The notes below the pieces were generated by a model that saw nothing but the letters and a program-made list of their open reading frames with translations, had not been told where the DNA came from and did not search any database. A stretch of DNA of 38,264 bases from Clostridia bacterium. Lineage in GTDB: Bacteria > Bacillota > Clostridia > UMGS1883. Location: positions 1 to 38,264 of the forward strand of contig JAXJXW010000034.1 in assembly GCA_036307325.1 (NCBI GenBank). The letters are read 5' to 3'. Of the stretch, positions 23,581 through 38,264 are shown piece after piece. Made by a program: the position numbers and the translations under genes. The first letter of the stretch is position 1, and each line of letters starts with the position of its first letter.

Positions 23581-23626
23581 TTTGTAAATCGTACATGAAT
23601 TAAACATACATGGTTGAGGTTTGAAT

Positions 23627-25510
23627 ATGAATAAAAAACAAAAAAAGATGCTTTCGAGAATTGTTCTTGCAGCAGTATTGATGATTGTTTTTGCGCTACT
23701 TCCCATTTGCGGAATACTTCGCTTTATGTTATATCTGATTCCCTATCTGGTGATTGGCCATGACATTCTATTAAAAGCGTGGAAGGGTATTCGGAACAAA
23801 CAAGTATTTGACGAGAATTTTCTTATGGCAGTGGCAACCATCGGTGCTATGATTATTGCAGTCGTGCAAAGCGGAGATTATGTTGAGGCCATTGCCGTTA
23901 TGCTTTTTTACCAAATAGGTGAGTTGTTCCAGAGCTATGCGGTAGGAAAGAGCCGAAAAAATATCAGTGAGCTGATGGATATTCGCCCTGATTATGCAAA
24001 TGTGGAGCAAGGCGGCAAGTTAATCAGATTAGACCCTGATGAGGTTTGCGTGGGAACAACTATCATTGTTCAGCCCGGTGAAAAAATCCCCATTGACGGC
24101 ATAGTTACAGAGGGTACATCAACTCTTAACACAAGTGCCCTCACGGGAGAAAGCCTGCCCCGTGATGTTAAAATCGGAGATGAAATTATCAGCGGCTGTA
24201 TAAATATGACAGGTGTCTTGAAAATGCAGACAACAAAGGAGTTTGGTGAGTCTACGGTTTCTAAGATTTTAGATCTTGTGGAGAATGCAAGCTCCAGAAA
24301 ATCCAAATCCGAAGATTTTATTTCTAAATTTGCTAAGGTGTATACCCCTGCCGTTTGTTACAGTGCCTTGGCTCTGGCAGTCCTTCCGCCGTTATTTAGT
24401 ATGCTTATTTTAAAAGTTCCTGCAAATGCAGGGCAGTGGCTGTATCGTGCTTTGTCATTCCTTGTTGCAAGCTGCCCTTGTGCTTTGGTGGTAAGTATTC
24501 CGCTAAGCTTTTTTGCAGGTATCGGCGGTGCAAGCAAGGAGGGAATACTTGTAAAAGGCTCAAACTATCTTGAAGCTCTTTCCAAAACGGGGTGCGTGGT
24601 GTTTGACAAAACAGGAACCTTGACTAAAGGCGTTTTTGAAGTCAGTGCCATACACCACAATGTGCTTTCGGAAGAAGCCTTGATTGAGTATGCCGCACTT
24701 GCCGAGAGTTCCTCCTCGCACCCCATAAGCAAAAGCCTTAAACGGGCATACGGAAAGGAAATTGAACGCAGCCGTGTAACCGATATTGAAGAAATCAGCG
24801 GTAATGGAATTATTGCCAAGGTTGACGGAAAAGCGGTTGCAGTAGGAAACAACAAGCTGATGAATAGGCTTGATATTCCCTTTACAGAGTGTCACAGTAT
24901 TGGAACTATTATTCATGTTGCAGTGGAGGGTAAATATGTAGGACATATTGTAATTTCCGATGTTTTAAAGCCCACCTCTCAAAAAGCTATTTCCGACTTG
25001 AAATCTGTCGGTGTGAAAAAAACAGTTATGCTGACAGGAGATGCCTCACAGGTGGCACAACAGGTGGCATCCTCCCTTGGAATTGATACTGTCTGCAGTG
25101 AGCTTCTGCCGGGGGATAAGGTTTCCAAGGTGGAAGAGCTGCTGGTTGAAAAACCGCCAAAATCAAAGCTTGCTTTTGTGGGTGACGGCATAAACGATGC
25201 CCCCGTTCTCTCAAGAGCCGATATTGGAATTGCAATGGGTGCTATGGGTTCAGATGCGGCCATTGAGGCGGCAGATATTGTCCTGATGGATGATGACCCT
25301 ATGAAAATTACAAAAGCTATTAAAATTTCCCGCAAATGCCTGGGAATTGTTCGCCAGAATATTATTTTTGCAATTTCCATTAAGGTAATGGCACTTATCC
25401 TTGTTGCTTTCGGTGTTGCAAATATGTGGATAGCTATTTTTGCAGATGTGGGAGTAATGGTTCTTGCCGTTTTGAATGCCATCCGTGCATTATTTGTCAA
25501 AAAACTATAA
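23627..25510 (+). CDS. Heavy-metal translocating P1B-type ATPase, Zn/Cd/Pb (P1B-2)-like
   Basis: Motifs TGES, TM6 SCPCAL, DKTGTLT, SSHPIS and GDGINDAP. TM8 carries a D-x-G (ADVGV) and TM7 a Lys, as in Zn/Cd-type pumps. There is no fused N-terminal HMA domain, which is encoded separately upstream. Confidence 0.88.
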   Translation: MNKKQKKMLSRIVLAAVLMIVFALLPICGILRFMLYLIPYLVIGHDILLKAWKGIRNKQVFDENFLMAVATIGAMIIAVVQSGDYVEAIAVMLFYQIGELFQSYAVGKSRKNISELMDIRPDYANVEQGGKLIRLDPDEVCVGTTIIVQPGEKIPIDGIVTEGTSTLNTSALTGESLPRDVKIGDEIISGCINMTGVLKMQTTKEFGESTVSKILDLVENASSRKSKSEDFISKFAKVYTPAVCYSALALAVLPPLFSMLILKVPANAGQWLYRALSFLVASCPCALVVSIPLSFFAGIGGASKEGILVKGSNYLEALSKTGCVVFDKTGTLTKGVFEVSAIHHNVLSEEALIEYAALAESSSSHPISKSLKRAYGKEIERSRVTDIEEISGNGIIAKVDGKAVAVGNNKLMNRLDIPFTECHSIGTIIHVAVEGKYVGHIVISDVLKPTSQKAISDLKSVGVKKTVMLTGDASQVAQQVASSLGIDTVCSELLPGDKVSKVEELLVEKPPKSKLAFVGDGINDAPVLSRADIGIAMGAMGSDAAIEAADIVLMDDDPMKITKAIKISRKCLGIVRQNIIFAISIKVMALILVAFGVANMWIAIFADVGVMVLAVLNAIRALFVKKL

Positions 25511-25531
25511 CATTAAGAAGGAGAATTTTCT

Positions 25532-25897
25532 ATGTCTGAAATAGAGCTTCCTCACAACCACGGGCAAGCCATGGAGCATAACTTTGACCACATGCCGAAA
25601 ACAGAGGAATTCAGCGTGATTGCCGATATATTTAAGCTTTTGGGTGATAGCAGCAGAATTAAAATTTTCTGGCTAATGTGCCATTGTGAAGAGTGCGTTA
25701 CGAACATTTCTGTCATGATGAATATGACAAGCCCTGCCGTATCACATCATCTGAAGCTGCTCCGAGGGAGCAAGCTGATTACAAGCCGAAGAGAAGGCAA
25801 AGAAGTGTACTATAAAGCGGCAAGCACCGAACAGGTACAGATGCTTCACCACGCAATTGAAAAACTGGTAAAAATCAGCTGCCCCGATAAACAGTAA
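25532..25897 (+). CDS. ArsR/SmtB family metalloregulator (CadC/CzrA-like)
   Basis: 121 aa with the wHTH signatures FKLLGDSSRIKIF and PAVSHHLKLL. It has a Cys cluster, CHCEEC, at the alpha3 position and a His-rich N-terminal tail (HNHGQAMEHNFDH). Confidence 0.88.
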   Translation: MSEIELPHNHGQAMEHNFDHMPKTEEFSVIADIFKLLGDSSRIKIFWLMCHCEECVTNISVMMNMTSPAVSHHLKLLRGSKLITSRREGKEVYYKAASTEQVQMLHHAIEKLVKISCPDKQ

Positions 25898-25942
25898 AGA
25901 GGAAACAAATTTGTTTTTGTAATTTTTTATTTGTTTTGTGAA

Positions 25943-25971
25943 TTGATTTTTGGTGAAAAATGTAGTACAAT
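25943..25971 (+). promoter_or_regulatory. SigmaA-type promoter driving the riboswitch leader
   Basis: TTGATT (25943-25948), a 17-nt spacer, then TACAAT (25966-25971). Confidence 0.6.
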
Positions 25972-26004
25972 GTAATAAATAAATTAAATATCATCACACA
26001 GAGT

Positions 26005-26216
26005 GTCGATTATGCCCCATGTGGCAAGGCTTGCCAAGGCACAATCGGTGAAAAGGGAATGGGGTGAGAATCCCCTGCGATAACTGTCGGTGTATGCTCC
26101 GAAGTTTTTATACTCGTCGGTGAAAACCGGTCATTGGGAAACTGAGAAGGCAGAGTATGAAAATGTCAGATTATCATATAATCTTATATGGAGCGAGTCA
26201 CAAGACCTGCTTTGAT
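26005..26216 (+). promoter_or_regulatory. Cobalamin (B12) riboswitch aptamer
   Basis: Conserved core elements appear in the correct order. These are GGTGAAAAGGGAAT-GGGGTGAGAATCCCC-TGCG..ACTGT (26047-26087), GTCATTGGGAAACTGAGAAGGC (26130-26151; consensus CCACTG..GGGAAGGC) and a B12-box-like GAGTCACAAGACCTGC (26195-26210). Boundaries are approximate. Confidence 0.8.
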
Positions 26217-26313
26217 ATTATCTCGTAATTGCGGCACCCGCATAGGGGTAATGTTTTTGTTTGCCTGAAAAAATTTACGGCATTCAGATTGTGATTCATC
26301 ACAGGAAAACTCA

Positions 26314-26348
26314 GCTGTGGTAATTTTTGAAATTACCGCGGCTTTTTT
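26314..26348 (+). terminator. Intrinsic terminator forming the riboswitch expression platform
   Basis: GCTGTGGTAATTT-(3-4 nt loop)-AAATTACCGCGGC gives a 13-bp stem including two G-U pairs, followed by TTTTTT. It lies about 70 nt upstream of the first ORF. Confidence 0.75.
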
Positions 26349-26419
26349 ATTTGCCTCGGTATATATGGGGGTGTAAAATAACATCAAAAAAATATATACA
26401 AAGAAAGGATTGAATTAAA

Positions 26420-29400
26420 ATGAAAACAAAACGAATTTTGAGCCTCTTGCTTGTGCTGTGTATGTTGCTTTCAACAGCACCCATTTCAGCATTTGCAGAG
26501 GAAATAACTGCTGCCGAAGCTGCAGTAATCTACCTCACCGTAAACAACAAAGGTGTAATTGCTACAGACACCGAAGGCGGCATAATGGCAAATCGTGAAG
26601 TAACCGTGACAGACAGAGATTCTAACGGGTATCTTACTTATGATGAGGCACTTAAAGCAGCACACGAGGCGTTTAACAACGAAGACGGATATATAGGTGG
26701 GGATTATGTAACAAAACTTTGGGGAGAACAAACATCTAATATATTATTTTTCATCAATAATACAGGTCTTACAGAAGGTGTTGGAACATCCATAATTTCA
26801 GCCGGAGACAGATTGACCGCATCTTTAAACAAAGATGATAAAACTTACGCAGATTGGTACACATTCTTTGATAAATCAGAAGAAACTATAGAACCAAACG
26901 AAGAAATTACCCTTACACTCAAAGGGCATCCCGGAATGACCGGAGGTGATGATACAACATTGCAGGGAATAGAAATTGGTATATGGAATGAAGGCGAATT
27001 TTCACCTATCGAAAATGCAGAAACAGACGAAGGCGGAAATATAACTATATCGTTTCCTGATACAGGCATATACTACATAACTGCGGATGGAACTGTTGAA
27101 GCAGAGGTAACTGATTATAATTTATATGATATGTCATCTATGCTGGAATCGGAAAATTCTGTACCTGTATATGGTGTAATGGATTATACAACCGGTGCAG
27201 TACAAATGGCTTATACTGCCGTAGACTATGGTGAAGGCCCATATCCTGCCGGAGAGATAAAGTATGTTGATTTCAATGAATGGGAGAATAATCAAGACGG
27301 GTATAATACATTACAGAGCAATACGCTGATTTCAAATTGCCCCATTATTGCCCCTGTTTGTATTTTAACTGTGGAAGAAAATAGCGCTGCAGGGGAAGAT
27401 ACACCGCCAACTACTGACGATGAAGATACAGGAAAACCTGACGCACCGACAGACAATGAGAAAAAAGACTATGATATTGTAATTCCCGGAGCTTTAGAAA
27501 AAATAGCAGCTAAATATATAAATAACACAGATGAATGGACAGTTATGGATATGGGGGCTTACGAAATTTATGCACCCCAAACGGAATATGCATTGACAGA
27601 TGAAGCAAGACAAGCATTCATCAATTCAGCAATCAGCACAATAAAGGACCCCTCCTGGGCTTTTTCGCCCGATACAGCTATTGATAAGGCTATTTTAGGT
27701 CTTGCTGCAATAGGAAAAAATCCCGAATTGATTTATTTGGTAAATAGCAATACAGCAATATCGGCAATAGAAAAGCTAAACGGCGTTGACAAGTCATCAA
27801 GTGCATGGAATGCTCCTTACACATTGGCAGCGTATAATCAAGGTGACTATGATACCGATAGCTATGAAAAGCAATTGGTAGATGATTTGCTTGCCGGGCA
27901 AAAAGACGACGGCAGTTGGGATGAATGGGGTACAATTGACACAACTGCCAATGTTATTGCAGGATTGTCGTTTTATAAAGACAGAGAAGATGTCAGCACC
28001 GCTATCGAAAAAGCTATAAATTATCTTTCTACACAGCAAACTGCAGAGGGAACATTCTCTGATGGTTACAACGGTTCAAACTCAAATTCGACCGCAATGG
28101 TTGTAATTGGACTTTGTGCTGCAGGCGTTGATTTGATAAATGATGACCGATTTATAAAAGGCGAAAACAACATTATTGACGGATTGCTGTCATTTTTGGT
28201 TGAAAATAAAAATGACTTTGGATTTAGTTATACGGATAAAGAAGCTGTAAACAACGGAGCTACCGAACAAAGCTTCCGCGCCTTAATCGCCTTTATGCAG
28301 ACCATCAAAACAGGTGGAGCTTACAATGTGTACGATTTCAGCGGCAGCGAGTTCACTCCTGCCCGTGAGAAAAGTAATGGCTCATCATCTTCTGCACCCT
28401 CTGAGCCAAGTGGTGATAATATTACTGTTACAATGACAATAAAGGCAGACACAGGCTATTGGCTTAAAAATTACACTACAACCATTCCAAAGGAAGGCGC
28501 AACTGTTTATCACGCATTTGTAAAGGTGTGCAGTGCAAACTCCATAACACATCAGGGTGCTGCACAGGGATATGTTTCATCAATAACTAAGGGCAACAAA
28601 ACTCTTGCCGAATTTGACAAGGGCGACAATTCAGGCTGGCTTTATAAAGTAAACGGCAAATTGCCCACGGTAGGACTTACCGAATTTCCTATAAAAGACA
28701 AAGATACCATTGTTTGGTATTATGCGGAGGATTGGACAAAGGATCCGTCAGCAGGGCATTATGGCGGTTCATCAAGTGTCAGCCAAAAGACAGAAAATAA
28801 TTCTGTTGTAACAACAACAAAGGTTTCAGGGGAAAAGGCAACTGTAACCGCAACGGAAAGCAGTATTAAAGATGCAATTTCAAATGCTGAAAAGAACAAT
28901 ACCGCATCTATTGTTATAGCTCCCACTGACACAAAAAATGCAACTGATATTACACTTGATATTCCTGCAAATTCAGTAAAAGAAATTGCTGAAAGTAAAG
29001 GCTTAACACTTTCTGTTGAAACAACTGCAGGTAATGTGGCTATTTCAAACGAAGCATTAAATGCCATTGCAGAGCAAATCGGAGATAAGGCATTAAATGT
29101 TGTGATTAAAACAAAGCTTGCTGATGAAGCTTCTGTCAGTGAAAAAATAATTTCAAAGGAAGAACTTAAAAATGCATCAATCGTAGAGATTACAATTACT
29201 TCAGGGGACACAAGTATTCACACATTTGGCGGAAATAGCTTGAGTGTTAATGTTCCCGTAAATGAAAGCACTCACAAAACCGGTAAAACCTATAAGGTGC
29301 ACATTATTTCAGCAGACGGAAGTGTTGAAACAGCTTATGGCAAATGCACAGAAAAAGACGGAAAATTATCTGTAGAAGTGCAAACTAATCATTTGTCCAC

Positions 29401-29971
29401 CTTTTTTGTTACAGACGAAGAAAAATCTGCATTTACTGATATTTTAAATCATTGGGCATCTGATGCTATAGAATATGTTTACAATCATTCTATTATGCGG
29501 GGCGTAAGTGAAACTGCGTTTGCTCCTGATGATACTATGACAAGAGCAATGCTTGTAACCGTGCTTTACAGATTGGAAAACCCCACGGAAAAAGCAAAAG
29601 CACATAGCTTTACAGATGTTGAAGATGGAGCTTGGTATGCAGATGCGGTTAGCTGGGCTTTTGAAAACGCAATGGTAAGTGGCGTAACCGAAACGGAATT
29701 TGCCCCGAATGCAGATATTACCCGTGAGCAAATGGCAGCAGTAATGCACCGCTATGCACAGTATAAAAAGCAAGATACATCTATCGGGGAGGACACAAAT
29801 ATCCTCTCATATACAGATGCGGAGGAAATCTCTGAATATGCAATACCTGCTATGCAGTGGATAGTAGGCGCAGGGCTTATGAAGGGCGAAACAGAAGCTA
29901 CCATCAATCCCAAAAACAATTCTACACGCGCACAAGTATCTGCAATCCTTATGCGTTATTTAGAACAGTAA
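26420..29971 (+). CDS. SLH-anchored surface protein with an alpha/alpha-toroid (prenyltransferase/terpene-cyclase-like) domain, a DUF4430 (transcobalamin beta-like) domain and 3 SLH repeats
   Basis: 1183 aa with a signal peptide (..APISAFA|EE). Toroid repeats include ILGLAAIGKNPE, QKDDGSWDEWG, QQTAEGTFSDG and ATEQSFRALIAF. The DUF4430 signature is ..GDNSGWLYKVNGKLPTVG..IKDKDTIVWYY. Three C-terminal SLH repeats begin FTDILNHWASDAIEY.., FTDVEDGAWYADAV.. and YTDAEEISEYAIPAMQW... Confidence 0.85.
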   Translation: MKTKRILSLLLVLCMLLSTAPISAFAEEITAAEAAVIYLTVNNKGVIATDTEGGIMANREVTVTDRDSNGYLTYDEALKAAHEAFNNEDGYIGGDYVTKLWGEQTSNILFFINNTGLTEGVGTSIISAGDRLTASLNKDDKTYADWYTFFDKSEETIEPNEEITLTLKGHPGMTGGDDTTLQGIEIGIWNEGEFSPIENAETDEGGNITISFPDTGIYYITADGTVEAEVTDYNLYDMSSMLESENSVPVYGVMDYTTGAVQMAYTAVDYGEGPYPAGEIKYVDFNEWENNQDGYNTLQSNTLISNCPIIAPVCILTVEENSAAGEDTPPTTDDEDTGKPDAPTDNEKKDYDIVIPGALEKIAAKYINNTDEWTVMDMGAYEIYAPQTEYALTDEARQAFINSAISTIKDPSWAFSPDTAIDKAILGLAAIGKNPELIYLVNSNTAISAIEKLNGVDKSSSAWNAPYTLAAYNQGDYDTDSYEKQLVDDLLAGQKDDGSWDEWGTIDTTANVIAGLSFYKDREDVSTAIEKAINYLSTQQTAEGTFSDGYNGSNSNSTAMVVIGLCAAGVDLINDDRFIKGENNIIDGLLSFLVENKNDFGFSYTDKEAVNNGATEQSFRALIAFMQTIKTGGAYNVYDFSGSEFTPAREKSNGSSSSAPSEPSGDNITVTMTIKADTGYWLKNYTTTIPKEGATVYHAFVKVCSANSITHQGAAQGYVSSITKGNKTLAEFDKGDNSGWLYKVNGKLPTVGLTEFPIKDKDTIVWYYAEDWTKDPSAGHYGGSSSVSQKTENNSVVTTTKVSGEKATVTATESSIKDAISNAEKNNTASIVIAPTDTKNATDITLDIPANSVKEIAESKGLTLSVETTAGNVAISNEALNAIAEQIGDKALNVVIKTKLADEASVSEKIISKEELKNASIVEITITSGDTSIHTFGGNSLSVNVPVNESTHKTGKTYKVHIISADGSVETAYGKCTEKDGKLSVEVQTNHLSTFFVTDEEKSAFTDILNHWASDAIEYVYNHSIMRGVSETAFAPDDTMTRAMLVTVLYRLENPTEKAKAHSFTDVEDGAWYADAVSWAFENAMVSGVTETEFAPNADITREQMAAVMHRYAQYKKQDTSIGEDTNILSYTDAEEISEYAIPAMQWIVGAGLMKGETEATINPKNNSTRAQVSAILMRYLEQ
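27466..28340 (+). other. Alpha/alpha-toroid domain segment of the 1183-aa protein (approximate)
   Basis: Repeated helical-hairpin motifs with D/N-G-(G/S)-W/F turns (DDGSWDEWG, AEGTFSDG). Paralogous to residues ~30-300 of the next ORF. Confidence 0.6.
28421..28735 (+). other. DUF4430-type domain segment (approximate)
   Basis: The segment runs ITVTMTIKADTG...SGWLYKVNGKLPTVGLTEFPIKDKDTIVWYYAEDW. It aligns by eye with the C-terminal domain of ORF 31647-32405 (SGWMYKVNGWFPNYGCSRYQLKEGDKVEWVY). Confidence 0.7.
29432..29968 (+). other. Three tandem S-layer homology (SLH) repeats
   Basis: Each repeat is ~55-60 aa and begins F/Y-TD, with the conserved G...G....F.P....TR(A/E)(Q/M) pattern. Confidence 0.85.
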
Positions 29972-29986
29972 AATTTTAGGCACTAT

Positions 29987-30027
29987 GCGAACAGTCAAAA
30001 AACTACTGCTCGCTTTTGCCCTTTTTT
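29987..30027 (+). terminator. Possible partial (attenuating) terminator between operon genes 1 and 2
   Basis: GCGAACAGT-(9 nt)-ACTGCTCGC pairs at 8 of 9 positions and is followed by TTTTGCCCTTTTTT. It sits in the 71-nt gap before the AAGGAG RBS of the next gene. Confidence 0.35.
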
Positions 30028-30042
30028 AAGGAGTTATAAAAA

Positions 30043-31632
30043 ATGAAGAAATCACTGTCATTTTTAATGTGCTTGATAATAATTTTCAGTCTGTCATCAC
30101 ATATCTTTGCGGCGGATATTGACGCAGTAAACAGTGCAGTGAATGACACTGCAAAATATCTGTATGAATCCGTGCCGGATCCTCAGGTCGGCTCCATAGG
30201 CGGAGAATGGGTAGTTTTGGGCCTTGCAAGAAGCGGAGCGGATATTCCTGATGAATATTTTGAAAATTATTATCAGACAGCAGAAAAATATATTAAGGAC
30301 TGCGGCGGAGTACTCCATGAAAAGAAATACACGGAATATTCAAGGGTTATACTTGCCTTAACTGCCATTGGGAAAAATCCTGCTGAGGTGGCGGGCTATA
30401 ACCTTATAGCACACCTTGAAGATTATGATAAAACAGTATGGCAAGGGATAAACGGTGCCATATTTGCTTTAATCGCTTTAGATAGCGGAGGCTTTATTCC
30501 TCAAAGCACAGTCAGAGAAAAATATGTCAATTATATTTTGGAAAAGCAAAATGATGATGGTGGTTGGGCTATGTCAGGAGATACTGCAGATGCTGATGTA
30601 ACGGCAATGGCATTGCAGGCACTCGCTAAGTATCAAGAAAATGAAAGGGTAAAAACTGCAATAGAAAAAGCACTTTTGCTTATGTCTCGCAGTCAGAACG
30701 AAAACGGGGGCTTTTCAAGTCAGGAAGCTGAATACTCCGAAAGCTGTGCACAAATGATTGTTGCCCTTTGCGAACTGGGAATATCCCCGGAGGATTCTCG
30801 CTTTATCAAAAACGGGAATACAATACTTGATTGTATGCTTACATACTATGAAAAAGGCAATGGATTTAAGCATACAAAAGACGGTACGGCAAATCAAATG
30901 GCGACTGAGCAATGCTTTTATTCACTTGCGGCGATAAAACGCTTCAATGAAGGGAAAAACAGTCTTTACAGTATGAGTGATGCAATTTCTGTTTCAGATA
31001 GCGGCATGGCAGAATACGGTCTTTACGGGAAAAACCCCGATGTTCAGAAAATGAATGTAGTACATGCGGGAAAAACCTTTGAAGATATAAGAGAACATAG
31101 TAACAAATCAGCAATTGAAGCACTTGCAGAGAAAAACATAATCAATGGCAAAACAGAAAACCTGTTTGACCCTCAAAGCACAATGACAAGGGCAGAGTTT
31201 GCCACAATAGTTGTGAGAGGGCTTGGTTTGCCTGTAAAAGGGGAATCCTTCTTTGCAGATGTGGCGGAGAATGATTGGTTTTTTGATTATGTAAATACTG
31301 CGTACTCCTATGGCATAATAAAGGGAGTATCGGATACCGAATTTAATCCCAACGGAACAATTACCCGTGAGGAAGCCGCCGTAATGGCTGCAAGGGCGGC
31401 AACGCTCTGTGGCATGAATACAGAGGTTGAAGTATTTGAGGCACGGGATATTTTAGCGGGCTTTTTGGATTATGTAAAGGCTTCTGATTGGGCGATAGGT
31501 GCTCTTGCCTTCTGTTATGATAAGGGAATACTTTCCGATGATACAATGGAAATAAAGCCGAAGGAAGCTGTTTCAAGAGCAGAAATTGCACAGATGCTTT
31601 ACAATATGCTTTCGCTGTCAAGACTCATTTAG
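30043..31632 (+). CDS. SLH-anchored alpha/alpha-toroid protein (toroid-only paralogue of the upstream gene)
   Basis: 529 aa with a signal peptide (..SSHIFA|AD). Toroid motifs include GGEWVVLGLARSG, ILALTAIGKNPAE, QNDDGGWAMSG, QNENGGFSS and ATEQCFYSLAAI. SLH repeats run from about nt 31078 (FEDIREHSNKSAIEALAE.., FADVAENDWFFDYV.., FLDYVKASDWAIGAL..). Confidence 0.85.
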   Translation: MKKSLSFLMCLIIIFSLSSHIFAADIDAVNSAVNDTAKYLYESVPDPQVGSIGGEWVVLGLARSGADIPDEYFENYYQTAEKYIKDCGGVLHEKKYTEYSRVILALTAIGKNPAEVAGYNLIAHLEDYDKTVWQGINGAIFALIALDSGGFIPQSTVREKYVNYILEKQNDDGGWAMSGDTADADVTAMALQALAKYQENERVKTAIEKALLLMSRSQNENGGFSSQEAEYSESCAQMIVALCELGISPEDSRFIKNGNTILDCMLTYYEKGNGFKHTKDGTANQMATEQCFYSLAAIKRFNEGKNSLYSMSDAISVSDSGMAEYGLYGKNPDVQKMNVVHAGKTFEDIREHSNKSAIEALAEKNIINGKTENLFDPQSTMTRAEFATIVVRGLGLPVKGESFFADVAENDWFFDYVNTAYSYGIIKGVSDTEFNPNGTITREEAAVMAARAATLCGMNTEVEVFEARDILAGFLDYVKASDWAIGALAFCYDKGILSDDTMEIKPKEAVSRAEIAQMLYNMLSLSRLI

Positions 31633-31646
31633 GAAGTGATTTTAAA

Positions 31647-32405
31647 ATGGCAAAACACAAAAACAAAATTATTGCAGGCTTAATTATTGCAGCAGCTTTG
31701 GCATTTGCATTTTTGTGGGGCGGCAATTCTCCCGCCATCAAAAATGAGAATCTGCCGGAAAAGGAAAGCGCAAATATAACCGAGACCCAGGCAGAGCCTT
31801 CCTCAGAATTGCCTGAAAAGGAGGAAGAAAAAAATGATGATTTGCAAGCCTTTGTCAATGAACCCTCCCACACTCAGGACAGTATTGAGGAAAGCGAAGC
31901 AGCTGTAAAAGATGCCCCGCAAAAAGATGAATATCAAACCGAGCCTATACCTGAGGGGAAACCTGTACCTATTGAGCCTGAAAATACAGTTATTTCTCAT
32001 AAGGAACTAACCTGTACAATGTCAGTCAGATGTGATGCAATACTTAAGAATATTGCTTTGCTTGATAAGGCAAAGGTGGAGCTTGTGCCGAAAGACGGCA
32101 TAATCTATGGGGAACAATCGGTTACCTTCTATGAGGGAGAAAGTGTTTTTAATGTGCTTGTGCGTGAAATGAAGCGTAACAAAATACACATGAAATTTGA
32201 AAACACACCCGTTTATAACAGTGCATATATAGAAGGCATTGGTAATTTGTATGAGTTTGACTGCGGCGAGCTTTCCGGCTGGATGTATAAGGTTAACGGT
32301 TGGTTCCCCAATTACGGCTGCTCCCGCTATCAGCTCAAAGAGGGCGACAAGGTTGAGTGGGTATATACCTGCGATTTGGGAGCAGATGTAGGCAAGGAAC
32401 GGTAA
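31647..32405 (+). CDS. Membrane-anchored DUF4430 (transcobalamin beta-like) domain protein
   Basis: 252 aa with an N-terminal TM anchor (IIAGLIIAAALAFAFLWGG) and an acidic, Pro/Glu-rich linker. The C-terminal DUF4430 domain starts at about nt 32007 (..ELSGWMYKVNGWFPNYGCSRYQLKEGDKVEWVYTCDLG). Confidence 0.8.
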   Translation: MAKHKNKIIAGLIIAAALAFAFLWGGNSPAIKNENLPEKESANITETQAEPSSELPEKEEEKNDDLQAFVNEPSHTQDSIEESEAAVKDAPQKDEYQTEPIPEGKPVPIEPENTVISHKELTCTMSVRCDAILKNIALLDKAKVELVPKDGIIYGEQSVTFYEGESVFNVLVREMKRNKIHMKFENTPVYNSAYIEGIGNLYEFDCGELSGWMYKVNGWFPNYGCSRYQLKEGDKVEWVYTCDLGADVGKER

Positions 32406-32413
32406 ATGATCAA

Positions 32414-33301
32414 ATGAATGAGTTTAAAACATATCACCCTATTGTTAATTTTGTGTATTTCATATTTGTAATTGGATTTTCATGTGTTTTTATGCACCCT
32501 ATATGCCTTTTGATTTCTCTTTTATCGGGATTCACATATTCTGTAATGCTCAGTGGAAAAGGGTCAGTCAAGAAAAAACTTATTTACATGATACCAATAC
32601 TGCTTTTTGCGGCACTTATAAATCCCGCATTTAACCACGAGGGTGTAACAATTATCAAATATCTGCCAAACGGCAATCCGCTGACTTTGGAATCTGTTGT
32701 ATACGGGCTTGCGGCGGCAACAATGATTGTGAGCGTCATATGCTGGTTTAGTTGCTATACGAATGTTATGACAAGTGATAAATTTATTTACTTGTTTGGG
32801 AAGGTTATTCCGTCAATGTCACTTATTATATCTATGACACTTCGGTTTGTACCAAGATTTTCCTCGCAGCTTAAGGTAGTAACAAATGCTCAGCGGTGTC
32901 TGGGGCGGGATGTGTCCGGCGGCAGTATAGTGCAGAGGGCAAAACACGGACTTACCATTCTTTCCATAATGACAACATGGGCACTGGAGAACGCAATAGA
33001 AACTGCGGACAGTATGAAATCCCGTGGATACGGTCACCCGGGAAGAACGGCGTTCTCAATCTTTACCTTTGATAAAAGAGATAAAAAAGCTCTTTTATGT
33101 ATTGTGATATTGGGAATATATACACTTGCAGGCAGCTTCTCTGGAGAAATGCACTTCAGATATTTTCCTTCACTGCAAGTAAGCGGTTTTTCCATATTTG
33201 GGATTAGTGTATTTGTTGCATATCTTGCACTTTGTATATGCCCCATAATAATTGAAGCTTGGGAGGTGATAAAATGGAAAGCTATAAAATCGAAAACTTA
33301 A
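32414..33301 (+). CDS. ecfT: ECF transporter transmembrane (T) component, EcfT/CbiQ family
   Basis: Multi-TM protein whose coupling-helix motifs end in RG/LG (NAQRCLGRD and ENAIETADSMKSRGYG). The ATG at 32414 is 8 nt after the upstream stop. The track extension (32357) overlaps the previous gene. Confidence 0.8.
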   Translation: MNEFKTYHPIVNFVYFIFVIGFSCVFMHPICLLISLLSGFTYSVMLSGKGSVKKKLIYMIPILLFAALINPAFNHEGVTIIKYLPNGNPLTLESVVYGLAAATMIVSVICWFSCYTNVMTSDKFIYLFGKVIPSMSLIISMTLRFVPRFSSQLKVVTNAQRCLGRDVSGGSIVQRAKHGLTILSIMTTWALENAIETADSMKSRGYGHPGRTAFSIFTFDKRDKKALLCIVILGIYTLAGSFSGEMHFRYFPSLQVSGFSIFGISVFVAYLALCICPIIIEAWEVIKWKAIKSKT

Positions 33302-35925
33302 GCTTTGTATATCCCAACAGAGCTAATAAAGCACTTGATAATATTAGTATTACCGTCAATCAGGGTGAATTTATAACCTTATGCGGCAAATCAGGCTGCG
33401 GAAAGACAACACTTCTTCGGCTTCTCAAAAGCTCTCTTTCCCCATATGGAGCTTTAAGCGGAAGCATATATTTTGAAGGGAGTATTTTATCCGAAATAGA
33501 TTCAAAAGACCAAGCCGCAAAAATCGGCTTTGTAATGCAAGCGTGCGATAATCAGATTGTGACGGATAAGGTGTGGCATGAGCTTGCCTTCGGTTTGGAA
33601 AGCCTGGGATATTCCACGCCCGAAATCCGAACAAGAGTATCTGAAATGGCATCATTTTTCGGTATAGAGAATTGGTTTCATAAAAAAGTAACGGAGCTTT
33701 CAGGGGGTCAGAAGCAGCTTTTAAATCTTGCCTCGGTTATGGTTATGCAGCCAAGCGTGCTTATTCTGGATGAGCCTACAAGTCAGCTTGACCCTATTGC
33801 GGCACAGGAGTTTTTAAAAACACTGGAAAAGATAAATCATGAGCTTGGTACAACGGTGATTTTATCGGAACACCGCCTTGAGGAGGCTTTCCCAATCTCC
33901 CACAGGATAGTTGTTATGGATAAGGGCAAAATTATTGCAGATGGCACTGTGCAAAAGGTCGGCGAGATATTAAAATCACAAAATCACCATATGTATTTAG
34001 CGCTTCCTGCGCCAATGCGTGTTTACGGCGCATTGGAGAATGGCCATGAATATCCCATTACCGTTCGTGACGGAAGAGCATGGCTTGAAAACTATTCAGA
34101 AAGCCATATGCTGAACAGTGGGGCAATACCAAAAACAATCGGTGATACTTTTTCACCCACTGTTATTGAAGTGAAAGACGCCTTCTTCAGATATGAAAAA
34201 AATTCGCCTGATGTTATAAAAGGATTGAATGTGCAAATAAACAGGGGAGAGCTGTTTTCAATTGTCGGCGGAAACGGAACAGGCAAAACAACGGCACTGT
34301 CGCTTATAAGCGGGCTTAATGCACCCCAGCGGGGAGAAGTTTTAATAAACGGCGAAAGCATTTCTAAGGTGAAAAATTTATATAACGGTATTTTAGGAGT
34401 ACTGCCCCAAAATCCCCAGAGCGTGTTTGTTAAAAAAACAGTTTATCTTGATCTCTTAGAAATACTGTCGGATAAAAAAATATCAAAAGAAGAAAAAGAA
34501 AGCAGGATCAGGAATATATCTCAGCTTTGCAGAATAGAAAATTTGCTTGACTGCCACCCGTATGATTTGTCAGGCGGTGAGCAGCAGCGTGCGGCACTTG
34601 CAAAGGTGCTTCTGATGTCACCCGAAATTCTTTTGCTTGACGAGCCAACAAAGGGGCTTGACGCACATTTTAAACAGATTTTTGCCGATATTTTAGCCGA
34701 TTTAAAATCTAATGGTGTCACCATTGTGGCGGTGTCCCACGATATAGAATTTTGTGCGGAATTTTCTGACAGATGTGCTATGTTTTTTGATGGGAATATT
34801 ACATCTGTGGGTAAACCGAGAGAATTTTTTGCAGGGAAGAATTTTTATACCACCTCCGCAAACAGAATGGCAAGAACAATTCTTCCAAAGGCTGTGCTTG
34901 CAGAGGATATAATACTTGCCTGCGGCGGCAAAGTGCGGGATAGACAAAACAGAAAGGCTTTATCAATCACCTTGCCTGAAAATGATAAAACCGAAAAACA
35001 TAAGGTAAATAATAAAAAATTTCCCATGTCAAGAATTGTCATGGGAAGCATATTTGTTTTGTTATTTTTGATCATATCAGTTTTTCAGCTTTTAGCTAAA
35101 AAACCTTTATCCGCAGACATTTTTCAGTTGATTTCCATTGTGGAAATTGCGGGAGCTTTTATCTGCTTTTTCCCCCAAAGAGAATTTGGCACAGAGTTTA
35201 TCGGAAAGCCGCAAAATAAACAAAGCCTATCAAAACGAACAGCAGTGGCAGCACTTCTCATACTGCTTGCAATACCGCTTACTATCTACATTGGAATATT
35301 TTATTTAGGTGACAGAAAGTATTATTTTATCAGCCTTTTAATTATCATTGAAACTATGATACCCTTTTGTATGGTCTTTGAAAGCAGAAAACCTCAGGCG
35401 AGAGAGCTTGTTATTATAAGTGTTCTTTGTGCTATTGCAGTTGCGGGCAGGACGGCATTTTTTATGGTTCCGCAATTTAAGCCTGTTGTGGCACTTGTAA
35501 TAATTGCAGGAGTTTGTTTCGGCGGTGAAACGGGATTTTTGGTTGGTGCGGTAACGGGCTTTGTATCTAACTTCTTTTTCGGGCAAGGCCCTTGGACCCC
35601 ATGGCAAATGTTTGCTTTCGGTATAATAGGATTTATTGCGGGCATACTTTTCCGCAAAGGCTTTTTGCGAAAAACAAAACTGTCCTTGTGTATTTTCGGA
35701 GCATTTGCCACACTTGTTATATACGGAGGCATTATGACCCCAGCAACTGTAATTATGTCCCAGGATAAGCTGAATTTAGCAATGATTAAGGCGGCCTTTA
35801 TATCCGGCATACCCTTTGATTTAATTCATGCTGCATCAACAGCATTTTCCCTCTGGTTTATCTCTGAACCAATGATTGATAAATTGGATAGAATTAAAGT
35901 GAAGTATGGCTTGATTGAGAGATAA
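33274..35925 (+). CDS. Fusion of two ECF-type ABC ATPase domains (EcfA-EcfA') with a C-terminal polytopic membrane domain resembling an ECF S component
   Basis: The first ATPase domain has GKSGCGKTT, LSGGQKQ and LILDEPTSQLD. The second has GGNGTGKTT, LSGGEQQ and LLLDEPTKGLD. From nt 35026 there are ~9-10 predicted TM helices, including a Gly-rich S-component-like core (GVCFGGETGFLVGAVTGFVSNFFFGQGPWTPWQMFAFGIIGFIAG). The GGGAGGTG RBS lies before the ATG at 33274. The gene overlaps ecfT by 28 nt. Confidence 0.8.
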   Translation: MESYKIENLSFVYPNRANKALDNISITVNQGEFITLCGKSGCGKTTLLRLLKSSLSPYGALSGSIYFEGSILSEIDSKDQAAKIGFVMQACDNQIVTDKVWHELAFGLESLGYSTPEIRTRVSEMASFFGIENWFHKKVTELSGGQKQLLNLASVMVMQPSVLILDEPTSQLDPIAAQEFLKTLEKINHELGTTVILSEHRLEEAFPISHRIVVMDKGKIIADGTVQKVGEILKSQNHHMYLALPAPMRVYGALENGHEYPITVRDGRAWLENYSESHMLNSGAIPKTIGDTFSPTVIEVKDAFFRYEKNSPDVIKGLNVQINRGELFSIVGGNGTGKTTALSLISGLNAPQRGEVLINGESISKVKNLYNGILGVLPQNPQSVFVKKTVYLDLLEILSDKKISKEEKESRIRNISQLCRIENLLDCHPYDLSGGEQQRAALAKVLLMSPEILLLDEPTKGLDAHFKQIFADILADLKSNGVTIVAVSHDIEFCAEFSDRCAMFFDGNITSVGKPREFFAGKNFYTTSANRMARTILPKAVLAEDIILACGGKVRDRQNRKALSITLPENDKTEKHKVNNKKFPMSRIVMGSIFVLLFLIISVFQLLAKKPLSADIFQLISIVEIAGAFICFFPQREFGTEFIGKPQNKQSLSKRTAVAALLILLAIPLTIYIGIFYLGDRKYYFISLLIIIETMIPFCMVFESRKPQARELVIISVLCAIAVAGRTAFFMVPQFKPVVALVIIAGVCFGGETGFLVGAVTGFVSNFFFGQGPWTPWQMFAFGIIGFIAGILFRKGFLRKTKLSLCIFGAFATLVIYGGIMTPATVIMSQDKLNLAMIKAAFISGIPFDLIHAASTAFSLWFISEPMIDKLDRIKVKYGLIER

Positions 35926-35976
35926 ATGTGGCTCTTAAAAATTTTCAAAGCTGATTGTGACAATACCACCAATATA

Positions 35977-36004
35977 GTAGGGGCGATTCGTGAATCGCCC
36001 CTAC
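35977..36004. terminator. Hairpin between the convergent ECF operon and copA
   Basis: GTAGGGGCGATT-cgtg-AATCGCCCCTAC is a GC-rich 12-bp perfect stem. There is no clean U-tract on either strand. Confidence 0.5.
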
Positions 36005-36037
36005 AAGCGTTTGTGCATTTTCTGAAGCCCATGGTAG

Positions 36038-38264
36038 TTATTGGATATTGGTTACTTCATATCCTTGATCGGTAACCGCCTTTGATAAAACAACATCCGG
36101 AATATCTTTATCCATTGTAACTGTAGCGGTTCCCGTTTTGTGGCTGACATTGGCAGAAGTTACACCATCAAGTGCCTCTAAGGCCTTCTTTGTGTGCATT
36201 TCGCAATGCTCACACATCATACCTGTAATTGTCAGTGTTTTTTTCATTGCTTTTGTCTCCTTTCGGAATTTTAATTTGTTATTTATTTTGTGATCCCTAT
36301 TGGAATCATAAATTTTACAGAAATTTAAGCGAAGGGCGTTTGTAACAACACAAAAGCTTGACAAGCTCATTGCTGCCGCACCAAACATGGGACTTAATTG
36401 CCAGCCGAGAATGTTAATAAATACACCTGCCGCCAAAGGAATGCCTATGGTGTTATAAATAAATGCCCAGAACAGATTTTCGTGAATGCTTTTAAGTGTT
36501 GCGCGGCTTAATCGTATGGCGGCAGGAATGTCTGACAGATTGCTTTTCATCAACACAACATCCGCCGCATCTATTGCAATATCACTGCCTGCACCTATGG
36601 CAATACCTATATCGGCACTTGTAAGGGCAGGGGCGTCATTTATTCCGTCACCTACCATGATGACATTTCCCTTTTGTTTAAGAGAGCGAATTACGCTTTC
36701 CTTGCCATCGGGGAGAACATCGGCAATAACCTCGTTAACGCCGGCTCTTTCTCCTATGGCTTTTGCCGTGCGTTCATTGTCACCGGTAAGCATAACTACA
36801 TGAATACCCATGCTCTGAAGCTCTTTTATTGCTTTTGGACTATCTTCTTTTATTATATCTGCCACCGCAATAATTCCCAAAAGCTCATCTTTATATGCGA
36901 AAAATAGCGGGGTTTTGCCCTTCATAGAAAGCTCCTCGGATTTACTCTTTATTTCATCCGGAACTTTTATTTTTTCACTTATAAATTTATAATTCCCCCC
37001 AAGCAGAGCTTCGCCATTGAGTGTTGCGGTGAGGCCGTTTCCGGGAAAAATTTTAAATTCGTCAACCTCTTGCGGTGTAACACCGCATTCCTCTGCCTTT
37101 TTGGTGATTGCCTGTGCCAAGGGATGCTCGCTCTTTTTTTCAAGGGAGCAGGCGAGGGATAAAAGCTCTGTTTCGCTTTTGCCGCCTATTGTTATTATGT
37201 CTGTAACCTGAGGCTTACCCACGGTTATTGTTCCTGTTTTATCAAGTGCTGCAATTTGTGCCTTGCCCGTTTTTTCTAAAGATACTGCCGTTTTGAAAAG
37301 TATTCCGTTTTTTGCACCCACTCCGTTTCCAACCATGATTGCAACGGGAGTTGCAAGACCCAGTGCACAGGGACAAGAGATTACAAGTACAGAAATTGCA
37401 TTGGTCAATGCAAAATCAAACGGCTTCCCCACTAGCAGCCACACTACCAGAGTAATCAAGGAAATACCCATAACAGCCGGTACAAAGATACCGGCAATTT
37501 TATCCGCAAGACGGGCAATCGGAGCTTTGGAACCACCGGCTTCCTCTACCAACCGAATTACTTGAGACAGTGTTGTATCCTCGCCGGTTTTCTCCACACG
37601 GATCTCCAAATAACCTTCCAGATTGATGGTAGCTGCAGCGACTGTGTCATCCGGGATCTTTTCAATAGGAACACTTTCACCGGTCAAGGCACTCTGATCC
37701 ACTGAGCCACGACCGGATATAACTGTACCATCCACAGGAATGTTCTCACCGGATCGAACTACAACAATTTCTCCAAGTCTTACATCCTCAATTGGAACCG
37801 TTACTTCATTACCATTTCTGCGCACACATGCCGTTTTCGGACTCAGATCCATCAATTTCCGTATTGCATCACCGGTCTTTCCCTTCGCCCTGGCCTCTAA
37901 AAACTTACCAATGGTTATTAATGTAAGAATCATCGCTGCAGATTCGAAATACAGATTCTTGCGATATAACTCCACGGTGTTCCAATCACCGTGCCCCATT
38001 GCATAACCGATTGAAAACAGCGCAAAAACACCATAGACAATTGATGCGCCAGAACCAACTGCAATCAACGAATCCATATTAGGCGCTTTATGATAGAGGG
38101 ATTTAAATCCTCTGGAGAAATAAGCGCGATTCAGAAATACCGGAGGAAGTGTGAGAAGGAACTGCAGTAGTGTTGCAACTAAAGCATTCTCTTTTCCCAT
38201 ATACCATCCGGGCATAGGAAGACCAATCATATGGCCCATAGTAAAATACATCAAAATCACAAGA
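36038..38264 (-). CDS. copA: Copper-translocating P1B-1-type ATPase, 5'-truncated by the window edge, with an in-frame C-terminal HMA (CopZ-like) domain
   Basis: Motifs TGES, TM6 SCPCALGLATP, DKTGTIT, SEHPLA and GDGINDAP, plus the TM7 YN and TM8 MSLSS Cu(I) signatures. The C-terminal 69 aa (36038-36247) form an HMA domain with GMMCEHC. The ORF is open to the window end, so the N-terminus is missing. Confidence 0.9.
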   Translation of the reverse strand, partial: LVILMYFTMGHMIGLPMPGWYMGKENALVATLLQFLLTLPPVFLNRAYFSRGFKSLYHKAPNMDSLIAVGSGASIVYGVFALFSIGYAMGHGDWNTVELYRKNLYFESAAMILTLITIGKFLEARAKGKTGDAIRKLMDLSPKTACVRRNGNEVTVPIEDVRLGEIVVVRSGENIPVDGTVISGRGSVDQSALTGESVPIEKIPDDTVAAATINLEGYLEIRVEKTGEDTTLSQVIRLVEEAGGSKAPIARLADKIAGIFVPAVMGISLITLVVWLLVGKPFDFALTNAISVLVISCPCALGLATPVAIMVGNGVGAKNGILFKTAVSLEKTGKAQIAALDKTGTITVGKPQVTDIITIGGKSETELLSLACSLEKKSEHPLAQAITKKAEECGVTPQEVDEFKIFPGNGLTATLNGEALLGGNYKFISEKIKVPDEIKSKSEELSMKGKTPLFFAYKDELLGIIAVADIIKEDSPKAIKELQSMGIHVVMLTGDNERTAKAIGERAGVNEVIADVLPDGKESVIRSLKQKGNVIMVGDGINDAPALTSADIGIAIGAGSDIAIDAADVVLMKSNLSDIPAAIRLSRATLKSIHENLFWAFIYNTIGIPLAAGVFINILGWQLSPMFGAAAMSLSSFCVVTNALRLNFCKIYDSNRDHKINNKLKFRKETKAMKKTLTITGMMCEHCEMHTKKALEALDGVTSANVSHKTGTATVTMDKDIPDVVLSKAVTDQGYEVTNIQ

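Follow-up and report, generated by a model that had tools for sequence, protein, structure and literature searches.

In the present study, we analysed a stretch of 38,264 nucleotides (nt) from a Clostridia bacterium (GTDB lineage Bacteria; Bacillota; Clostridia; UMGS1883), which is positions 1 to 38,264 of contig JAXJXW010000034.1 in NCBI GenBank assembly GCA_036307325.1 and is referred to below as the window. Two adjacent genes in it, gene 2 and gene 3, each encode one half, alpha (toroid) in gene 2 and beta (DUF4430) in gene 3, of the transcobalamin-like architecture that the nearby gene 1 carries in fused form, as both fold and Pfam evidence indicate. According to our reading of the open reading frames (ORFs) of the window, the pair sits in a tightly packed string of five genes on the + strand (26010-35925), which begins with a cobalamin riboswitch and ends with the genes for a transporter of the energy-coupling factor (ECF) type. 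We consider it probable, on balance, that the locus encodes a cobalamin-repressed ECF cobamide importer of the CbrT kind with its own extracytoplasmic capture proteins, built from the domains of transcobalamin and intrinsic factor. A system of this kind was already predicted in 2007, and its interpretation in terms of B12 is well supported.

Two halves of a transcobalamin-like architecture

The product of gene 2 begins with a typical Sec signal (MKKSLSFLMCLIIIFSLSSHIFA/AD, ending SSHIFA/AD, the slash marking the cleavage site), and, as in other wall proteins anchored by S-layer homology (SLH) domains, carries three tandem SLH repeats, a region that matches the SLH domain of Bacillus anthracis Sap (6BT4, E 2e-15) in a PDB sequence search. 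Between signal and anchor lies the toroid, and Pfam finds no DUF4430 in the protein, so that the arrangement read from the letters in the earlier note on this DNA is borne out. The protein matches at least 7437 clusters, the sole annotation being 'S-layer homology domain-containing protein'. Gene 3 starts 14 nt past the stop codon of gene 2, with an AGGAAG ribosome-binding site in front, and the two are separate ORFs in different frames. Its product matches DUF4430 (PF14478) over residues 164-241 with an E-value of 1.5e-18 and contains no toroid by Pfam; among NCBIfam models, none matches gene 3 or gene 4.

Gene 1 unites these parts in one polypeptide, in the order signal peptide, N-terminal region of about 315 amino acids (aa), toroid, DUF4430, spacer of about 220 aa and three SLH repeats. 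In BLASTP comparisons, it shares 32% identity with gene 2 over the toroid (E 2e-23) and 33% over the SLH region (E 2e-20), and its DUF4430 shares 30% identity with that of gene 3 (E 2e-13). The paralogy proposed earlier from the motifs AIGKNP, ATEQ.F..L.A and SGW.YKVNG is thus confirmed, and the motifs themselves are seen in the alignments. As a side observation on gene 1, a sub-threshold DUF4430 match (E 0.036, 15 bits) falls at window positions 26492-26900 (aa about 75-133), and the N-terminal region resembles by eye the pattern '...G.Y..VNG...GD.I.F'; a second, divergent beta-grasp domain may therefore precede the toroid. An akin N-terminal region is found in several gene 1-like proteins of related loci and in P0310, the protein at the position of gene 2 in a homologous cassette (L088).

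The Pfam matches of the gene 2 toroid, to Prenyltrans and SQHop_cyclase, are weak (E about 1e-5 to 1e-6) and score at or below the Pfam gathering thresholds, and gene 2 itself stays below the threshold of Cobalamin_bind (PF01122). P0310, which aligns with both the toroid and the SLH region of gene 2, does pass PF01122, with 29 bits against a gathering score of 25; its cassette runs riboswitch, P0310, a 202-aa DUF4430 protein, T and AA'S. Given the repeats that it resembles, the toroid might be imagined as an enzyme of the prenyltransferase, terpene-cyclase or glycoside-hydrolase type, acting on a wall or extracellular substrate and unrelated to B12 capture: the PDB sequence matches are likewise to squalene-hopene cyclase and prenyltransferase repeats, and Foldseek also returns terpene synthases and unsaturated glucuronyl hydrolases. 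We rejected this reading as highly improbable, because the DxDD motif (D.DD) is absent from both gene 1 and gene 2, the protein is extracellular to judge from its signal peptide and SLH repeats, and its gene is strictly coupled to the DUF4430 gene, the ECF-CbrT module and the B12 riboswitch. Moreover, the enzyme families rank behind the transcobalamin family by fold, and it is Cobalamin_bind that P0310 passes at the same position.

DUF4430 is the C-terminal domain of vertebrate transcobalamins (PMC4350170) and represents the transcobalamin-like clade of the SLBB beta-grasp superfamily (PMC1796856). Through PF14478, gene 3 contributes this C-terminal beta-grasp domain of transcobalamin-like binders; a single polypeptide in which a flexible linker joins it to the toroid is the case for gene 1 and not for genes 2 and 3. 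For the structural comparison, we fused aa 24-335 of gene 2, the toroid, with aa 30-252 of gene 3, the linker of gene 3 itself serving as the connection, and modelled this chimera with AlphaFold2 (AF2) from a block-diagonal alignment (A3). The model has a mean pLDDT (predicted local distance difference test) of 74, rising above 90 in the toroid, which has at least 12 helices. Transcobalamin, haptocorrin and intrinsic factor account for every one of the chimera's top 15 PDB matches (E 8e-8 to 8e-6, about 560 aligned columns), whereas prenyltransferases and terpene cyclases rank after these carriers and align over the toroid only. The natural fusion of gene 1 (aa 340-790), modelled by AF2 with 41 diverse homologues at a pLDDT of 90.3 and a predicted template-modelling score (pTM) of 0.78, returns the same 15 carriers with E-values of 2e-9 to 3e-7. 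In both models, the two domains align to the carriers in the same order.

A conserved core under cobalamin control

The cassette is very widespread. At 90% identity, gene 3 matches at least 7997 clusters; among the 120 matches listed (214-380 aa), nearly all carry no domain but DUF4430, with 86-100% of the query matched. An exhaustive search with gene 3 gave 7049 representatives at 50% identity with E <= 1e-3, 1521 of them with E <= 1e-30. When one genome per GTDB species was scanned for the motifs YNSAYIEG and PNYGCSRY, the cassette appeared in at least 588 species, with carriers in Ruminococcus, Oscillospiraceae, Flavonifractor plautii, Sporobacter termitidis, Butyricicoccus, Vallitalea, Sedimentibacter, Pelotomaculum, Candidatus Formimonas and several Paenibacillus. 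Ruminococcaceae and Oscillospiraceae are among the abundant gut carriers, and Flavonifractor, Sporobacter and Paenibacillus are cultivable; the carriers named are Flavonifractor plautii ATCC 29863, Sporobacter termitidis DSM 10068, Paenibacillus plantarum, P. qinlingensis and P. chondroitinus.

In order to describe gene order, we surveyed the best 80 species-level loci, using the domains of the window as queries and taking the gene 3 orthologous group alone. A toroid gene lies directly 5' of the gene 3 homologue in 74/74 loci with enough sequence, 71 of these with SLH, at a median distance of 12 nt. On the other side, EcfT follows in 56/58, an ABC gene comes next in 55/56, and this is an ABC-S fusion in 55/55; the adjacency of DUF4430-only genes to ECF genes, for which the earlier note had proposed a survey, is therefore systematic in this orthologous group. 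Three metagenomic lookups with differing flanking genes show the same gene order. A large gene 1-type protein with DUF4430 and SLH is present in only 42 of 58 loci and is very variable in size and position. Since the split pair is invariant and the gene 1 type is not, the conserved core consists of genes 2-3-4-5, with gene 1 as an accessory; this reverses the initial view of genes 2 and 3 as a split version derived from gene 1.

Several variants were noted along the way. In two Paenibacillus loci (L053, 14323-20835; L055, 14352-18263), the gene 1-type protein is encoded divergently, 3' of the cassette, behind a cobalamin riboswitch of its own, which suggests that this outer protein is B12-regulated apart from the core there. 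One abundant lineage, represented by many contigs, has a MatE-family efflux gene between the homologues of gene 3 and EcfT (L001-L003, 10938-12263). A Pelotomaculum contig carries two tandem cassettes (L046, 1553-5770 and 8260-14528), the first with a separate 209-aa S gene and no ATPase-S fusion. Finally, in three loci (L024, L050 and L067), the toroid protein has about 350 aa and no SLH, its gene overlaps the gene 3 homologue by 4 nt, and that homologue has 238 aa and a short linker; this is a pair free of a wall anchor, apparently coupled in translation.

Upstream of the five genes in the window, the aptamer of the riboswitch matches the full-length Rfam model above its gathering score of 31.5. 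The hairpin just 5' of gene 1 (26313-26343) is the strongest terminator-like site within 25800-36200 and, together with its T tract, is probably the expression platform of the riboswitch. Our scan for terminator-like sites over the same interval found no comparable terminator between genes 1 to 5; therefore the five genes look like a single B12-repressed transcription unit behind the riboswitch and its terminator. Cobalamin riboswitches stand 5' of the homologous cassette in 10 of the 14 related loci scanned, and a Butyricicoccus locus (L080, 6075-6605) was seen to have a tandem pair of aptamers at this place.

Gene 4, whose likely ATG lies 8 nt past the stop codon of gene 3, scores 31.5 bits against the CbiQ gathering score of 25 and provides EcfT. 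Gene 5 has two ECF-type ATPase domains, with 353.6 bits for TIGR04520 (cut-off 315) and 336 bits for TIGR04521 (cut-off 330), and a fused S domain, for which the top PDB chain is 6FNP_A, the CbrT of ECF-CbrT (E 3.8e-9 over 173 residues); the S component is thus related to CbrT. About four extra transmembrane helices are predicted between the second ATPase domain and the S domain (window 35020-35400, aa about 587-709). ECF transporters are generally described as working without an extracytoplasmic substrate-binding protein. The present locus does not fit that description, as it also encodes three exported proteins that have ligand-binding folds, and two of these are strictly conserved with the ECF module.

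Taken together, the riboswitch with its terminator, the CbrT-like S domain and the riboswitches at related loci make the link to B12, on which the earlier note had relied, a strong one. A different substrate, heme or another tetrapyrrole, is claimed for the lsa1836-1840 genes of Lactobacillus sakei, where deletion of a split alpha/beta operon impaired heme accumulation (10.1101/864751). For the present family, we regard such a substrate as improbable: the cobalamin riboswitches here and at related loci, the closeness of the S domain to CbrT, and DUF4430 as a domain common to the eukaryotic cobalamin carriers (PMC4350170, PMC1796856) all argue for cobalamin.

The coordinates of the features are collected in the table. 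The remainder of the window consists of ordinary chromosomal housekeeping genes, namely recG, lepA, alanine racemase, radA and citrate synthase. On both sides of the B12 operon (23621-25897, and 36038-38260 on the - strand), we observed metal-resistance genes. Direct reading of these flanks gives two P1B-type ATPases (CPC and DKTGT motifs), one of them with a GMxCxxC HMA domain, and an ArsR/SmtB-like regulator. One related locus (L004) has an HMA/E1-E2 ATPase 3' of its cassette; the association with metal genes may be a coincidence.

Table. Features of the B12 operon in the window (positions in nt of the window; aa, residues of the encoded protein)
Feature	Position	Strand	Description
Cobalamin riboswitch aptamer	26010-26228	+	Rfam RF00174, 44.6 bits, E 3.6e-8; match over the full length of the model
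Terminator-like hairpin and T tract	26313-26353	+	14-bp stem, then TTTTTATTT; between aptamer and start of gene 1
Gene 1	26420-29971	+	Wall-anchored fused alpha+beta protein, putative binder; Pfam SLH E 5e-28, DUF4430 E 8e-17
Gene 2	30043-31632	+	529 aa; signal peptide, alpha/alpha toroid, three SLH repeats
Gene 2 signal peptide, aa 1-23	30043-30111	+	n-, h- and c-regions ending IFA/AD
Gene 2 alpha/alpha toroid, aa 24-310	30112-30972	+	Pfam Prenyltrans, SQHop_cyclase; transcobalamin alpha-like half
Gene 2 SLH triplet, aa 340-529	31060-31629	+	Pfam SLH x3, E 1e-34; cell-wall anchor
Gene 3	31647-32405	+	252 aa; hydrophobic N-terminus, acidic linker, DUF4430
Gene 3 hydrophobic segment, aa 8-24	31668-31718	+	Kyte-Doolittle peak 2.3; signal anchor or signal-peptide core
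Gene 3 acidic Pro/Ser/Thr-rich linker, aa 30-122	31734-32012	+	93 aa, AF2 pLDDT below 50
Gene 3 DUF4430/SLBB beta-grasp domain, aa 123-247	32013-32387	+	Pfam PF14478; transcobalamin beta-like half
Gene 4, EcfT (CbiQ family) transmembrane component	32414-33301	+	Pfam CbiQ, E 1.8e-7
Gene 5, fused EcfA-EcfA'-S protein	33259-35925	+	ABC_tran x2 (E 2e-59), TIGR04520/04521, ECF S domain
Gene 5 S domain, aa 715-863	35401-35847	+	PF12822 (ECF_trnsprt) E 1.3e-11, PF07155 E 6e-11

Possible assembly around a cobamide and the N-terminus of gene 3

How might these proteins act together? Gene 2 would supply the alpha half, fixed in the wall by its SLH repeats, and gene 3 the exported beta half, with its N-terminus at or in the membrane and its domain on a long, flexible acidic tether. 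The toroid and the beta domain would clamp one cobamide between them, only with the ligand present, and such a clamp, being made of two chains, would be of lower affinity and reversible. On its tether, which in principle is long enough to reach into the wall, the beta domain would then transfer the ligand to gene 5's CbrT-like S domain, whereupon EcfT and the two ATPase domains would power import. Gene 1, with alpha and beta fused on a longer stalk, would be an optional outer capture layer, and in the B12-replete state the riboswitch would turn the operon off. The full sequence of events for gene 3, namely a membrane-tethered shuttle that joins the gene 2 toroid in a B12-dependent clamp, comes off again and brings the cobamide to the S domain, is a tentative and rather doubtful part of this scheme.

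Assembly in trans around B12 is plausible by analogy, because the separated domains of human transcobalamin (TC) assemble in this way: TC-alpha and TC-beta, expressed apart, co-elute only upon the addition of cobalamin, the interface between the two domains is very small, and splitting the protein lowers its affinity (PMC5599065). Conversely, one may think of no assembly at all, in which case genes 2 and 3 would bind cobamide independently along a gradient of affinity, gene 2 (like gene 1) serving as a reservoir or capture layer in the wall and gene 3 alone, as the receptor close to the membrane, feeding the S domain. Such an affinity relay would agree with the binding of cobalamin and cobinamide by isolated human TC-beta (PMC5599065), with the extracellular cobamide relays of several proteins in Bacteroides (BtuG/BtuH/BtuJ; PMC13616437), and with the fact that ligand-free AF2 gave no alpha-beta docking. 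The last point is uninformative, since the human domains associate only with cobalamin present and a ligand-dependent clamp would be expected to give the same outcome. We consider independent binding unlikely, as the toroid-only and beta-only genes adjoin in every one of the 74 loci at so short a distance, and they even overlap in loci such as L024, where the toroid protein has no SLH. Natural fusions of alpha and beta also exist (gene 1, and a 2776-aa protein in L047), and the transcobalamin toroid alone was purified without bound cobalamin (PMC5599065).

Several observations weigh against the reading of genes 2 and 3 as a transcobalamin-like pair that serves B12 uptake from a membrane tether. 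When the gene 3 protein, the profile of its family and the gene 2 protein were compared with PDB sequences, noise, SLH domains and cyclase repeats came back but no cobalamin carrier, and because transcobalamin was missed in this way, the link to the carriers rests on fold, Pfam and literature. The beta hairpin region of the chimera (gene 3 aa 181-211) has a pLDDT below 50. The ligand-free chimera is off the pose of holo-transcobalamin, with a root-mean-square deviation (rmsd) of 10-13 A and a template-modelling score of about 0.5, and even the confident gene 1 model differs from it in domain orientation, at an rmsd of about 21 A, which makes it unsuitable as a template for the closed clamp. 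Our literature search gave no binding or interaction results for any member of the cassette, and the sole experimentally studied split alpha/beta operon, that of L. sakei, was tied to heme uptake and not to B12 (10.1101/864751). Lastly, the residues behind the hydrophobic segment of gene 3 (S-P-A/I in the window, A-P-G/L in the consensus) fit the -3/-1 rule of signal peptidase in roughly 78% of the orthologues, and cleavage there may release the protein, so that the tether would be lost.

This last point calls for a closer look at gene 3, for which we compared orthologues from 73 species. A basic N-terminus, MAKHKNK, precedes a hydrophobic stretch of 17 residues, and the linker that follows holds 25 D+E against 8 K+R (net charge -17) and 10 Pro. 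Across the orthologues, the linker ranges from 20 to 165 aa (median 111) and is Pro-rich, with a median of 19% D+E. Mean column identity is highest in the domain (0.86), followed by the preceding 30 residues (0.73) and the N-terminal 29 residues (0.63), and lowest in the linker (0.35); the toroid of gene 2 reaches 0.71 among its orthologues. A linker of such variable length beside an unusually conserved beta domain suits a tether. Five cysteines of gene 3 (aa 123, 129, 206, 225 and 242) are kept in 66-73 of the 73 orthologues, whereas the DUF4430 of gene 1 has other residues at all five positions; disulfides between them are conceivable, and one could also act as a cobalt ligand, as the cysteine of BtuM does. 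With these five conserved cysteines in the domain and a MAKHKNK start that fits the positive-inside rule, gene 3 is predicted to face outward and not the cytoplasm, and its domain would be extracytoplasmic whether the N-terminus is kept or removed.

Right after the hydrophobic segment (31716-31750, aa 22-34), we noticed a motif, F-W-W-G-G-(D/N)-A-P-G-L-R-G-W, also written as GG-x-(A/S)-P-(G/A)-L-R-G-W. It is kept from Paenibacillus to Oscillospiraceae, unusually so for the c-region of a signal peptide, and may provide a juxtamembrane contact or mark a site of specific processing.

Read as a c-region, the same residues would be cleaved behind S-P-A in the protein of the window, the consensus having A-P-G at this place. 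The N-terminus of gene 3 would then be an ordinary cleavable Sec signal, and the mature protein, an acidic tail with the beta domain, would be freed to the wall or the medium as a soluble 'cobalaminophore' that docks on the SLH toroid. This is quite possible, if not what we favour. The n-region MAKHKNK, the 17-aa h-region and the sequence GGNSPA/I, with helix breakers at -6/-5 and small residues at -3/-1, would fit a signal peptide; small residues occupy -1 in about 57 and -3 in about 58 of the 73 orthologues; and the alpha- and beta-like proteins of L. sakei are described as soluble with export signals (10.1101/864751). On the other hand, about 20% of the orthologues have non-permissive residues (Y/M at -3; R/N/E at -1), and conservation of positions +1 to +4 (L-R-G-W) and of the h-region (L18 in 71/73) goes beyond that of usual signal peptides, as does the N-terminal column identity, which is only 0.43 in the signal peptide of gene 2. 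The h-region is also 3-4 residues longer than in the clear signal peptides of genes 1 and 2, and the disordered linker of 20-165 aa makes obvious sense only with one end fixed.

Because the positive-inside rule fits MAKHKNK and the N-terminal segment is conserved, we hold a permanent anchor to be somewhat likelier than a cleaved signal, on sequence grounds. What the earlier note had said of gene 3 therefore stands in part: the 14-nt gap, the acidic linker (93 aa), DUF4430 and the lack of a toroid are as described, and a hydrophobic N-terminus with an outward domain is predicted, whereas the permanent transmembrane anchor, and with it the term 'membrane-tethered', is unproven, as a plausible signal-peptidase site (S-P-A/I) follows and a cleavable signal fits too.

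Relation to known carriers and transporters

The general kind of system has precedents. Burroughs, Balaji, Iyer and Aravind (2007) predicted B12 scavenging for SLBB proteins encoded in CbiO/CbiQ operons, the genomes concerned having no B12 synthesis; some of these transcobalamin-like SLBB proteins have toroids and others do not (PMC1796856). Their operons resemble the present one in having an extracellular multidomain SLBB (+toroid) protein, a second, paralogous SLBB protein and CbiO-/CbiQ-like genes in low-GC Gram-positives. Not among the points made in the consulted passages of the 2007 paper are an obligate toroid-only SLH partner, a solo-SLBB protein with a hydrophobic N-terminus and a variable acidic linker, ATPases fused to a CbrT-like S domain, and riboswitch control. 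In L. sakei, Verplaetse et al. (2019) found a separate exported beta-like protein, Lsa1839, and an alpha-like Lsa1840 beside the genes of ECF S, AA' and T, and proposed an alpha/beta heterodimer that hands its ligand to the S component, which they linked to heme (10.1101/864751). That system, likened here by its description, differs in the ligand claimed, in having soluble proteins, with no SLH anchor mentioned, and in gene order and fusion state. The suggestion that a binding domain beside an ECF module would be unusual was thus overstated, given DUF4430/SLBB proteins in CbiO/CbiQ operons in 2007 (PMC1796856) and the split genes of L. sakei in 2019 (10.1101/864751).

Among transporters, the closest solved relative of the S domain is ECF-CbrT of Lactobacillus delbrueckii (6FNP; PMC5997447), which has the same EcfT and two ATPases. 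As a group II system, it shares its ECF module and has an S component that stands alone, and no partner outside the cytoplasm is described for it (PMC5997447), whereas here S is fused to both ATPases via about four extra transmembrane helices and everything, including the predicted wall and membrane binding proteins, lies in a single riboswitch-controlled operon. BtuG/BtuH/BtuJ of Bacteroides (PMC13616437, PMC10404256) are alike in that several surface B12 binders are encoded with a transporter under B12 riboswitches in gut bacteria, but differ in their unrelated folds (beta-propeller, DUF4465 and others), in being outer-membrane lipoproteins, and in working with TonB-dependent BtuB and BtuFCD.

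The eukaryotic carriers transcobalamin, intrinsic factor and haptocorrin (PF01122 + PF14478) share the alpha/alpha toroid followed by the beta-grasp domain. They form one polypeptide, whereas here there are two, one with an SLH anchor and the other with a hydrophobic N-terminus and an acidic linker; they have only 10-14% sequence identity to our models, in which the predicted domain orientation is not the holo pose; and they deliver to an endocytic receptor, whereas here delivery would be to an ECF transporter. In the literature searched, we found no definition of the four-gene core, of the arrangement of an SLH-anchored alpha protein with a beta protein of hydrophobic N-terminus, or of the CbrT-like fused S, and no cobamide biochemistry for them; a 2026 review of the Bacteroides relay calls extracellular cobamide capture in Gram-positive Firmicutes 'entirely uncharacterized' (PMC13616437).

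The value of the present analysis lies in the conserved core that it defines and in the tractable organisms that it names, while the instance in the window adds little beyond the family. That family is very large, the gene 3 family alone comprising more than 1500 clusters at 50% identity, and it is found in ecologically important gut bacteria and in cultivable hosts that allow direct testing. The cassette appears to contradict the textbook picture of ECF transporters as needing no extracytoplasmic binding protein. Should the beta domain of gene 3 indeed act as a shuttle, an ECF transporter would for the first time have been shown to rely on an extracytoplasmic protein that delivers its substrate; the system would also be the main cobamide-capture machine, so far unrecognised, of Clostridia and Paenibacillus in gut and soil, and a split equivalent of intrinsic factor in prokaryotes that could compete with the carriers of the host. 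If the split pair feeds ECF-CbrT, the competition of these bacteria for B12 against Bacteroides and against the intrinsic factor of the host would have an explanation; the pair would provide a natural two-chain, ligand-dependent transcobalamin clamp, and it would support the proposal of 2007 that the B12 carriers of animals came from Gram-positive bacteria.

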